From a virus (lineage: Duplodnaviria; Heunggongvirae; Uroviricota; Caudoviricetes): a stretch of DNA of 10,337 nt. The stretch lies in IMG/VR virus record IMGVR_UViG_2703718859_000004, positions 1 through 10,337 of that record; one strand, written 5' to 3'. The position numbers were made by a program. Position 1 is the stretch's first letter; the number at the start of each line of letters is the position of its first letter. Of the stretch, positions 6,001 to 9,000 are shown piece after piece.

Positions 6001-9000
6001 CATGGGTCATGCTGGAACCAGTCAGATTTGAATGCATGAGAACGCCGCCCGTGCCTGCTGGCAGGGGCGGTGGAGTTATCCGAATTGTGTAATTTGGTAT
6101 CTTGCGCCATCGGTTGTCTCTGCTGGCGCAGCAGGTGCCAGTTGTTCAGGCTGGCGTGCGGCAATATTGTCTCTGATTTCTGTTGTCGTCAACAGGCAGC
6201 GTGCTATCATCGAATAGTGTTCTATCCTACTCCGTGAGGTTTACCATGCGTACAACCCAACAATTCAGCATTACATTAACTAACGAGATGGCTGACATGG
6301 TGCGCGCCCGTGTGGCTTCCGGCGCCTATGCTTCAGAAAGCGAGGTCATTCGTGAAGGGCTTCGCGCACTGAATGAGCGCGATAAAGCAATCGAAGCGTG
6401 GTTAACGCATTCAGCCGCCCCCTCTCTTGATTCTATCCGCGAAAACCCAAACAACGGACGCTCCATTTCACAGGTTCGCGTCGCGATTCGATCCGGGAAG
6501 TAATCTGCATGACATATGAAGTCATCATTACTCCTGAGGCCGAACAACAAATAATCAACCTGCACAGATATATAACGGAGAAAGCAGGGAACATCATTGC
6601 TGACAATTATGCCAATGCGCTTCTTGATTATCTTGATGGGTTTTCTACATTCCCGCATCGGGGCAATAAACGCGATGATATTCGCCAGGGGATGCGGGTA
6701 ACTCATTTCCGCCACAGAACGATTATTGCTTTTGCCGTTGATGGCAGAAAAGTCTTTATTGTCGGTATCTATCATGGTGGGCAAAGTTATGAAACCGATT
6801 TCTTATAAACTTTTACCCACATCATTCCGGTGTTAGAATAAACCGTCTGCCCCTCTCTTACTGCGGATTCGTAGGCTATATAAATCAAAGATCCCGGCTC
6901 ATGTTTGTGGCGGGATCTTTTTTCGGCGATTTATCCCCAGCGGCAAATCGAATACACCACCAGCGCCACCGCCATTGCAATACCAACATTTGAGAAGGCC
7001 TCAGGCCAGCTCATTGGCGCACCTCCTGCGGCGGTTCTGGTAGCGGCATCCAGTGTGATGGTATCCACGACGCACCAGGTACTACCCACCCATCATTAGC
7101 GTCAGGATGCCCCGGGATGTAAGTCGCCCATTTCATTCGCCAGTCACCTTTCCTGTCAAACTCCCTGGCAACAAGAACGGCTGTTTTGGTATCCGGCATT
7201 CGCTCACTACAGCTTATCCAACCATCCGGAGTTACCGGCACTGGCTTGGCGGTATAAAGCGGTGTTATATCTGCCCGAAAATTACATGCTTTATGCAGCC
7301 GCACCCACCGTTCGACTTCTGCTTTGTCAGAATACATACCAGTGAACGTGTTATATTCACGGTCAATTTGCGTGAATGTTACCTTCCACGCCACCGGCTC
7401 TGCTTCCAGAGATGCCAGTGCGATACGCAGGGAAGCCAGGATATTCCCCTGGTAATCATCAAGCCCGAAAGGAAGCTCATCACGAACGCTTTCATAATCG
7501 TTGATAGCCTGCTGCAGCCATTCTCTTGTGATAGTGCTCATGATTCCTCTCCTTTACCGGCTGCGGCGGCGATACGAAAAAGTTTAATGTCGCCGCTGTC
7601 TGAGTTCTGCTTACTCCAGATAAGTGACGTTTCTCGCCCGCGCTCGTTGATATGCATGAGATTTCTTTCGTCTGTAAAGCATGCAGGGATGAAAGCTACA
7701 GGGAGTGGATAGAGGGCAACTGCATCATCACCCCATTGCTCAACTGCATATTTCTCATCGGTTGTGAACCTCGACATGAATGATGTGACGTTAGCATTCC
7801 TCATCCATGCAACTGGCTTAACGTCCCGCGCCTGCAGCTCAGCAATCCGCTTCTCTGCTGCTTCCAGCTCAACACGCAGCTTCCCTACCGTTAGCGCAAT
7901 ATCCTCGTTCTCCTGGTCGCGGCGTTTGATGTATTGCTGGTTTCTTTCCCGTTCATCCAGCAGCGCCAGCACGGTAGCTGGATTGGCTGCGGCGATGAAT
8001 TCAGCATTGGCCTGCTGTTCCATTTGGAAATCTTCATCGAAACCGCTTTCAGGATGCGCTCCTTCAATTCTGCAAATGGGAATATATCCAGCAACTTCAC
8101 GATGAATTAGCGCATCATCACCATCAAATCGTCCCTCTCCATATTCGAGCGACCACTCGCCACACGTTGCTTTTTCTGCCTTAGCACGCAATGCCTGATA
8201 GTCAATCTTGCTCACTGGTTGCCTCCTTTGCGAAGCTCAGCGGCGAAGGCTACTGCGTGATCATGATGTTCAAGTGTGTATGCACACTCCGCAAACATCT
8301 CCACGCCCTGCGCTCGTACTTCAGCCAGGAAAGCATCGGTGGCAGGCATATTTCCTGTTGCCTTCATGGCCTCCAAAATAACCAGAACGCCATCTCTCCC
8401 AACCTCCTCGCAGATAACCTCGGTGTTGTCGCCAACAACATCGCAGAATGCCTGAACTGCTTTACGAGCAAGTGCATTCTCCGCCGCCAGCGCCACAAGA
8501 TTAGCTTCCAGCTCTGCAATACGTTTGCTTTGGGCTTCCCGTTCATCCAGCAGTGCCTGTACTACTTCAGGGTTGAAAGCTGCAATAAATTCTGCGTTGT
8601 TCTCTGCATTTTTCTGGTCATCAAAGCCAGGCCATTTGATAATGTCTCCGCAACGTTCATCCCCCGGCGTATGCACCGCATATGTATCAGTGCCCGGCGA
8701 AATGAATGCGACCCATTCGCCCTGGGTTGCCAGTTTTGCTATCTCACGTAGCGTCTGATAATTAATTTTTCTCACTGGTTGCCTCCTGGAAAATAACCGC
8801 ATGTCCCAGTTTCTCCGCCAGTGCCAGTTCTGCCTTAGCGCCTGCCGACCGCTGCCAGCCTTTCAGCATGTAAATCGCATCCACGCAGCGTATCATCGCC
8901 ATGCAAATATCCATGTAGTGTGGCTGTGTCAGTCCGTCCGGAAGTACTGCCGGGTTTAAAACGGTATGCCCTTCCCGTTTCAGTGCTTCTTCCGCCCTGT

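Follow-up and report, generated by a model that had tools for sequence, protein, structure and literature searches.

ParE toxins inhibit DNA gyrase and phenocopy fluoroquinolones (PMC11925232), and a prophage-encoded pair built around such a toxin maintains the excised prophage CP4So (PMC8706911). Among the closest to the locus studied here is that of the Stx2a phage ArgO145, in whose GenBank record (KY914478) the two genes are already labelled as putative antitoxin and toxin components. We analysed the corresponding parD-parE pair in a 10,337-nucleotide stretch of DNA from a virus of the Caudoviricetes (IMG/VR record IMGVR_UViG_2703718859_000004, positions 1 to 10,337; the whole stretch is referred to as the window). 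The pair very probably represents a canonical type II ParD-ParE operon, carried as a moron of approximately 0.8 kb in the nin region of a Shiga toxin 2b (Stx2b) lambdoid prophage and acting by a family-like mechanism, with addiction as its likeliest role. Along the window the parts of the operon are as follows.

6163..6245, plus strand: left edge of the cassette with the parDE promoter and leader, delimited by a promoter scan, the start of homology at 6163 and conservation of the extended -10
6246..6503, plus strand: parD, an antitoxin of 85 amino acids (aa) with an N-terminal ribbon-helix-helix DNA-binding domain and a C-terminal toxin-binding region (RefSeq WP_001260978.1)
6509..6808, plus strand: parE, a toxin of 99 aa from the ParE branch of the RelE/ParE fold (Pfam, Foldseek; RefSeq WP_000220597.1)
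6809..6886, plus strand: 3' untranslated region (UTR) of parE, which holds a promoter-like site at 6812-6839
6887..6923, unstranded: intrinsic terminator, hairpin plus T6, with a 10-bp stem (6887-6896/6911-6920) and a T-run (6918-6923)

The antitoxin matched both Pfam PF03693 ParD_antitoxin (32.2 bits, cut-off 21; 1.5e-7) and NCBIfam TIGR02606 (53.1 bits, cut-off 46.2; 2.4e-14). Its sequence matches in the PDB at E < 0.01 were exclusively ParD antitoxins (3kxe, 7ycv, 7b22, 6x0a, 8c24 and 5ceg), and 2,629 ParD homologues were found. A longer reading frame starting at a TTG codon (6183-6503, 106 aa) was rejected for ATG 6246 because of the position of the Shine-Dalgarno sequence (GAGG at 6236-6239, read as that of parD), the 85-aa length of close enterobacterial homologues and the RefSeq call.

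The toxin matched Pfam PF05016 ParE_toxin over its full length (40.7 bits, cut-off 23; 3.6e-10). As this family and the RefSeq name both span ParE and RelE, we modelled the toxin with AlphaFold from an 18-sequence alignment (pLDDT 83) and searched the PDB by fold with Foldseek. For the predicted structure, of beta-alpha-alpha-beta3 layout, the top 22 chains were all ParE-type (TMq 0.59-0.73); PfiT ranked first, and the others included ParE3, P. aeruginosa ParE, M. tuberculosis ParE1/2, PrpT, O157 ParE2, V. cholerae ParE2 and Caulobacter ParE1. Structures of the RelE branch (RelE, YafQ, YoeB, RelK and HigB) ranked below these, with TMq values of 0.38-0.52. Sequence identity of the toxin to characterised ParEs was 13-24%. 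Both proteins also matched PHROGs families of the category 'moron' (antitoxin family E = 5e-56, toxin family E = 4e-43). The assignment to ParD and ParE made in the preliminary description of this locus is thus upheld by Pfam, TIGR02606, PHROGs and the fold ranking alike. His89 of the toxin is kept within a C-terminal IYHGG motif. By analogy of position, drawn without an alignment, this residue may be equivalent to His91 of ParE_SO, which is essential for the toxicity of that protein (PMC8706911).

The two genes are arranged as expected for an operon, antitoxin first and on the same strand, with the parD stop codon at 6501-6503 and the parE ATG at 6509; the reported spacing of 5 nt was therefore exact. 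The sequence GGGAAG at 6495-6500 was read as the parE Shine-Dalgarno sequence, and between the genes there is neither a significant promoter nor a significant terminator. A terminator-like site inside parE (6730-6749) was rejected as weak, with 3 GC pairs and at chance expectation. Of 17 distant loci that encode a toxin relative, 16 have a parD homologue directly upstream of it; the loci come from other species, among them Salmonella, Yersinia, Pantoea, Paraburkholderia, Polynucleobacter, Desulfovibrio and Dyella. Pairwise comparison of E. coli and Salmonella alleles gave ratios of non-synonymous to synonymous substitution rates (dN/dS) of 0.05-0.3 for parD and about 0.1 for parE. As judged from these sequences, neither gene is disrupted and purifying selection acts on both, which agrees with, but does not prove, a toxin that arrests growth and is neutralised through direct binding by its antitoxin. 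A profile-free search retrieved 1,145 cluster representatives at E <= 1e-3; these form a sub-family of moderate size within a very large superfamily.

The window matches a prophage of E. coli 2012EL-2448 (NZ_CP027586) at approximately 99.8% identity (99.84% outside one missing segment), and between positions 6050 and 6960 its DNA is 100% identical to the RefSeq locus of this strain. Listed by increasing window coordinate, i.e. in reverse of transcription, the minus-strand genes are stxB2b, stxA2b, three tRNAs, a DNA methyltransferase, a Q-type antiterminator, RusA, a DUF968 protein and a 92-aa hypothetical protein (5832-6110), followed beyond parDE by DUF551 (7011-7541), Ea22-like genes, DUF4406, a DNA-binding protein and DUF1627. 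The replication genes are located just outside the window. The host element is a Stx2b-converting lambdoid prophage of E. coli, and parDE was placed in the nin region because it lies between the replication genes and Q. In both the open reading frame (ORF) list and the annotation of the approximately 99.8%-identical RefSeq locus, parD and parE are the sole plus-strand genes of the window, which bears out the earlier statement that 6111-6923 is the only plus-strand unit. That description had further placed the module between an accessory operon and nin-like genes on the other strand; the flanks are indeed on the other strand, but both belong to the nin region, and the stx 'accessory' genes lie further left.

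Comparison with other genomes supports the view, from sequence, that parDE is a discrete moron cassette of about 0.8 kb. Its left boundary at 6163 is common to three other contexts, namely ArgO145, Stx2a phages carrying an orphan parD, and a Salmonella prophage. In ArgO145 homology extends over exactly 6163-7014 at approximately 96%, nothing else nearby matches, and the cassette is found in the left arm, where it again runs opposite to the genes around it. Homology to the Salmonella prophage covers 6163-6806. Conversely, many genomes, that of E. coli O26:H11 11368 among them, have homologous flanks, on the left up to 6153 (88.7%) and on the right from 6995 (96%), with the interval between them filled by hokD, a type I toxin-antitoxin gene (O26:H11 11368: locus L004, 3054-3785). 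This slot has the 92-aa hypothetical gene on one side and the DUF551-type gene on the other. In one strain, parDE and a Hok/Gef gene are adjacent, and in phage 933W a homologue of the 27-aa ORF that follows the cassette (see below) is succeeded by hokW/sokW. Besides L004, hok-type cargo in the slot was located at these positions.

L022, 1376-1650 (933W): hok-type cargo
L024, 3822-3977: hok-type cargo

Since hokD, parDE or both are found at one site, the slot is a recurrent site for toxin-antitoxin cargo of which parDE is one alternative. The cassette has its own promoter and terminator, lies on the strand opposite to its neighbours and is swapped between homologous flanks, as is typical of morons; the moron insertion proposed previously is thereby substantiated, by the common left edge as well as by hokD in the same slot.

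The surroundings of the cassette in ArgO145 and the Stx2a phages are of a different kind. There, the parD cassette abuts an isrK small RNA (sRNA; 53 bits) and a C4 antisense RNA (70 bits), beside an ORF6N ant-like gene.

L003, 2812-2895 and 2921-2994, minus strand: isrK and C4 antisense RNAs (Rfam)

A similar upstream sequence and an ORF6N gene are present in the Salmonella locus, and a similar upstream sequence in Yersinia (the Rfam matches to isrK and C4 come from L003); isrK, C4 RNA and ORF6N are absent from the window. The motif GGTTCGAATCC, which stands upstream of the cassette not in the window but in ArgO145, Salmonella and Yersinia, was considered as a tRNA remnant or attachment (att) site and rejected. 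ARAGORN found no tRNA, and Rfam showed the motif to be the isrK sRNA, beside the C4 antisense RNA.

The promoter upstream of parD is sigma-70-like, with a -35 TTGTCG (6183-6188), a 16-nt spacer and a -10 TATCAT (6205-6210) extended by TG (6202-6203). The TGnTAnnAT pattern is kept despite substitutions in Salmonella (TGCTATTAT) and Yersinia (TGCTAAAAT), so that the extended -10 promoter reported earlier is confirmed. We regard this conservation across genera as better evidence for a promoter than the scan. Two candidate operators overlap or adjoin the promoter.

6180..6195, unstranded: perfect 6-bp inverted repeat CTGTTG-TCGT-CAACAG over the -35 (arms 6180-6185 and 6190-6195), the operator candidate of the preliminary description
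6214..6230, unstranded: ATAGTGTTCTATCCTAC, a degenerate copy of TAGGAT-N3-ATCCTA just downstream of the -10, with 4/6 matches in the left half and 6/6 in the right

The repeat over the -35 exists as described and is a plausible operator, but it is not the best-supported candidate. Taken alone it is unexceptional, as 5 inverted repeats of at least 6 nt occur within 161 nt. Its arms pair perfectly in the nin-region loci of E. coli and in Salmonella and at 5/6 in ArgO145 and the orphan variant, and in its counterpart in Yersinia similis the palindrome is lost. The second element does not vary among 5 of the 6 E. coli/Salmonella loci compared, the sixth (L025) having a single substitution, and is nearly the same in Yersinia. 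The full palindrome GTAGGATTAAATCCTAC, with the core TAGGAT-N3-ATCCTA, is found 20-40 nt upstream of parD in Paraburkholderia, Polynucleobacter, Pantoea and Winslowiella (L006-L014), and the core palindrome is also upstream of parD in an IncP-1 plasmid (L026, 1197-1213). The N-terminal strand of ParD, here MRTTQQFSITL, is nearly identical in the palindrome-bearing loci (TQQ[FML]SITL). We therefore propose 6214-6230 as an alternative or additional candidate ParD operator, no less good than 6180-6195, and the two may both be in use. In the relatives, the family-wide palindrome overlaps a -10-like TAGGAT.

At the 3' end, the terminator has a predicted free energy of -19 kcal/mol (z = -4.6) and none of 200 shuffles folded as well, in agreement with the strong hairpin and T-run originally noted; a pattern scanner missed it because of its 14-nt loop. 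It is conserved, with stem-preserving variation, in the ArgO145, O111 and O139 loci. The reverse strand folds too (-15.3 kcal/mol) and is followed by the U-rich tail UUUGAUUU, so the hairpin may also stop leftward phage transcription after the 27-aa ORF; that is, the terminator may be bidirectional. No plus-strand ORF of at least 20 aa starts within 6809-6886, hence there is no third gene after parE, and a three-component system with a third gene before the terminator was rejected. An Rfam search of 6000-7150 for structured RNA in the leader or 3' UTR gave nothing meaningful. The promoter-like site in the 3' UTR (TTTACC-16-TAGAAT with TG, 6812-6839) is conserved in the ArgO145, O111 and O139 loci and could drive a transcript of approximately 75 nt ending at the parDE terminator.

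Beyond the terminator lies an unannotated small ORF, a neighbour outside the toxin-antitoxin pair.

6931..7014, minus strand: 27-aa hydrophobic ORF, MSWPEAFSNVGIAMAVALVVYSICRWG

Its ATG overlaps the stop codon of DUF551 (ATGA), and it accompanies the cassette in ArgO145, from which it differs by 9 nucleotides in 40 nt, mostly synonymous, with 3 changing an amino acid. The peptide has homologues in 93 phage records, among them those of 933W, ArgO145 and BP-4795. Three phage loci were inspected; in each, the match starts at most a few bases from where a differing upstream gene ends, and the cargo after the ORF varies, being hokW/sokW, small ORFs that lead to xis-int, or a KilA-N gene. The ORF had no PHROG match, and no gene was annotated for it in any record inspected.

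Elsewhere in the prophage, a segment of approximately 125 bp (L001, 1136-1262), just downstream of stxB2b in 2012EL-2448, is missing from the window at about position 310. Rfam matched the STnc100 sRNA at window 149-356, minus strand (102.6 bits), overlapping the end of stxB2b and running downstream of it. A second type II pair, outside the window (L001, 13903-14381), comprises a RelB antitoxin and a RelE/ParE-family toxin and is annotated beside a helix-turn-helix regulator gene near the prophage immunity region; the prophage thus has at least two toxin-antitoxin modules.

The toxin gene was present in 328 of 5,426 complete E. coli genomes, always on the chromosome, and in the 30 sampled records listed it was labelled 'type II toxin-antitoxin system RelE/ParE family toxin' without exception (30/30). 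Among sequenced phages it was found in ArgO145 and two Stx2a phages. As RefSeq and GenBank carry the same labels, our interpretation of the genes is already in the databases, and the module is known by annotation, not by experiment. Promoter and parD were present in 365 complete E. coli genomes, compared with the 328 that have parE, leaving about 37 genomes with an orphan parD. A count of approximately 1,900 orphan parD genomes was rejected; these matches were to a 113-nt left flank common to hokD-type prophages. The orphan parD of these genomes and of Stx2a phages (LC727840; L003, 3084-3360) is intact, with 86-87% nucleotide identity and an identical N-terminal 47 aa, while parE is cut to MAYEVPH*, its place being taken by a HigA-like gene and a lipoprotein-like ORF. 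The combination of an orphan ParD with HigA has been noted previously in phages of enterohaemorrhagic E. coli (PMC12502783). In Yersinia similis (L016), parE is frameshifted. The orphan ParD could possibly cross-neutralise the ParE of the window, and on co-resident Stx2a phages this might amount to phage-phage cross-talk.

From what is described for the ParDE family, the cassette would be transcribed in the lysogen independently of phage promoters, from a promoter that would be constitutive but autorepressed. ParD dimers would bind palindromic promoter DNA through their ribbon-helix-helix domain and repress transcription, with 6214-6230 and/or 6180-6195 as candidate sites, while the C-terminal tail of ParD would wrap and neutralise ParE. 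Once resupply of ParD stops, e.g. upon prophage loss or transcription shut-off, proteases would remove ParD, and free ParE would poison DNA gyrase; double-strand breaks and SOS induction would follow, and growth would be arrested. Prophage addiction or stabilisation is most likely the selected role, in analogy to ParE_SO/CopA_SO of CP4So and to the hok/sok modules of this slot.

Several observations weigh against this interpretation. None of the NCBIfam models matched the toxin, and its only sequence match in the PDB, Mesorhizobium ParE3 (6x0a), was weak (E = 0.008). The promoter scan count was 3, compared with 1.6 +/- 1.1 in shuffles, and hence not significant alone; the family-wide palindrome is degenerate in this cassette; and the orphan parD copies together with the frameshifted parE of Y. 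similis indicate that the toxin is sometimes lost. A search of the literature by accession, by phage name and for ParE with Stx or lambdoid phages found no experimental study of this module. Finally, one P. aeruginosa ParE is non-toxic (PMC11925232), and PfiT of the Pf4 prophage, the top fold match, is described as modulating phage production, a role unlike simple addiction. Because of these last two points, gyrase as the target is an extrapolation.

The same anatomy could instead serve defence, by abortive infection or superinfection exclusion, with an invader that shuts off host transcription or degrades ParD releasing ParE to kill or arrest the cell before the invader replicates. We consider this unlikely, even though a prophage moron expressed in the lysogen is a typical site of defence genes, the PHROGs category covers morons and host takeover, and the slot exchanges toxin-antitoxin types (hokD, parDE or both) in the manner of defence hotspots. 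Neither protein matched a PADLOC defence model at E <= 0.01, our literature search gave no report of ParDE as an anti-phage system, and the sequence contains nothing that tells defence from addiction.

Quite unlikely, in our assessment, is a toxin of ParE fold that does not target gyrase and either modulates replication or production of its own phage in the manner of PfiT and PrpT, or acts as a weak or non-toxic partner that tunes repression by ParD. The rank of PfiT and the presence of PrpT among the top fold matches would be consistent with this proposal, as would the non-toxic ParE (PMC11925232) and the low identity to characterised ParEs. The strict parD-parE pairing and strong purifying selection on parE argue, however, for a toxin that needs neutralisation. 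In addition, most characterised ParE-branch matches (V. cholerae ParE2, Caulobacter ParE1, M. tuberculosis ParE1/2 and P. aeruginosa ParE) are established gyrase poisons.

It is very improbable that the cassette is wired into the induction circuit of the Stx prophage and is not a passive addiction module. The genes are antisense within the delayed-early operon (pR to Q), and N-antiterminated transcription after induction must therefore run head-on through parDE. Such read-through could silence parDE, labile ParD would decay, and the freed gyrase poison, like a fluoroquinolone, would trigger SOS, giving a positive-feedback commitment to induction and Stx2b release; alternatively, stress-activated ParE might raise spontaneous induction. 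That the toxin is a RelE-type, ribosome-dependent mRNA endonuclease is hardly credible, since the generic RefSeq name ('RelE/ParE family') and the PF05016 family and fold common to both branches are outweighed by the ranking of RelE, YoeB, YafQ and HigB below 22 ParE-type chains, by a single PDB sequence match that is a ParE, and by a partner of the ParD family, not of RelB, YefM or DinJ type.

With a canonical ParD-ParE addiction module as the preferred reading, the finding is a correctly recognised, database-annotated toxin-antitoxin moron, real but ordinary, and useful for annotation. It would matter more if a gyrase-poisoning toxin swayed how the Stx prophage is induced through SOS, and with it the output of Shiga toxin, or if the module affected the stability of Stx2b prophages in populations of Shiga toxin-producing E. 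coli. The recurrent nin-region slot for hok/sok or parDE and the family-wide candidate ParD operator motif are modestly useful by-products.

Among known systems, PaaR-PaaA-ParE of E. coli O157:H7 needs a third regulator and a PaaA antitoxin without DNA-binding domain, neither of which fits the window; O157 ParE2 (5cw7) is a match by fold only, with 17-19% toxin identity, and the window antitoxin is a full ribbon-helix-helix ParD. The chromosomal ParDE systems compared were Mesorhizobium ParDE3 (5ceg, 6x0a), Caulobacter ParDE1 (3kxe), Vibrio cholerae ParDE2 (7r5a), P. aeruginosa ParDE (6xrw) and M. tuberculosis ParDE1/2 (8c24, 8c26). They share with the window a ribbon-helix-helix ParD followed by a ParE-fold toxin, antitoxin first (toxin TMq 0.65-0.73), but toxin identity is 13-24%, and the window module is phage-borne and known here from sequence. 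The hok/sok modules (hokD; hokW/sokW of 933W) occupy the same nin slot, downstream of the same small hydrophobic ORF, and have a presumed role in prophage maintenance; in contrast to parDE, they combine a membrane toxin with an antisense RNA and have the opposite orientation. ParE_SO-CopA_SO (CP4So, Shewanella) and PfiT-PfiA (Pf4, Pseudomonas) resemble the window pair in that a prophage-encoded ParE-fold toxin is tied to prophage maintenance or production, but differ in antitoxin family (CopA, PfiA) and phage type, and PfiT's C-terminal extension is missing from the window toxin.

More similar is a ParD/ParE-like pair of an IncP-1 plasmid (kluB, 'plasmid stability protein', on related plasmids), with 46-47% toxin identity, the same ParD N-terminus and the palindrome TAGGATTGAATCCTA upstream of parD. 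It differs by its plasmid context, by overlapping genes as opposed to a 5-nt gap, and by a palindrome that is intact there and degenerate in the window. The closest counterparts are the RefSeq pair WP_001260978.1/WP_000220597.1 and the cassette of ArgO145, which have the same gene order, spacing, promoter and terminator as the window. The ArgO145 toxin is 98% identical to the window toxin at the protein level; its cassette differs in lying beside the isrK/C4 RNAs and the ORF6N (ant-like) gene and not in the nin region.

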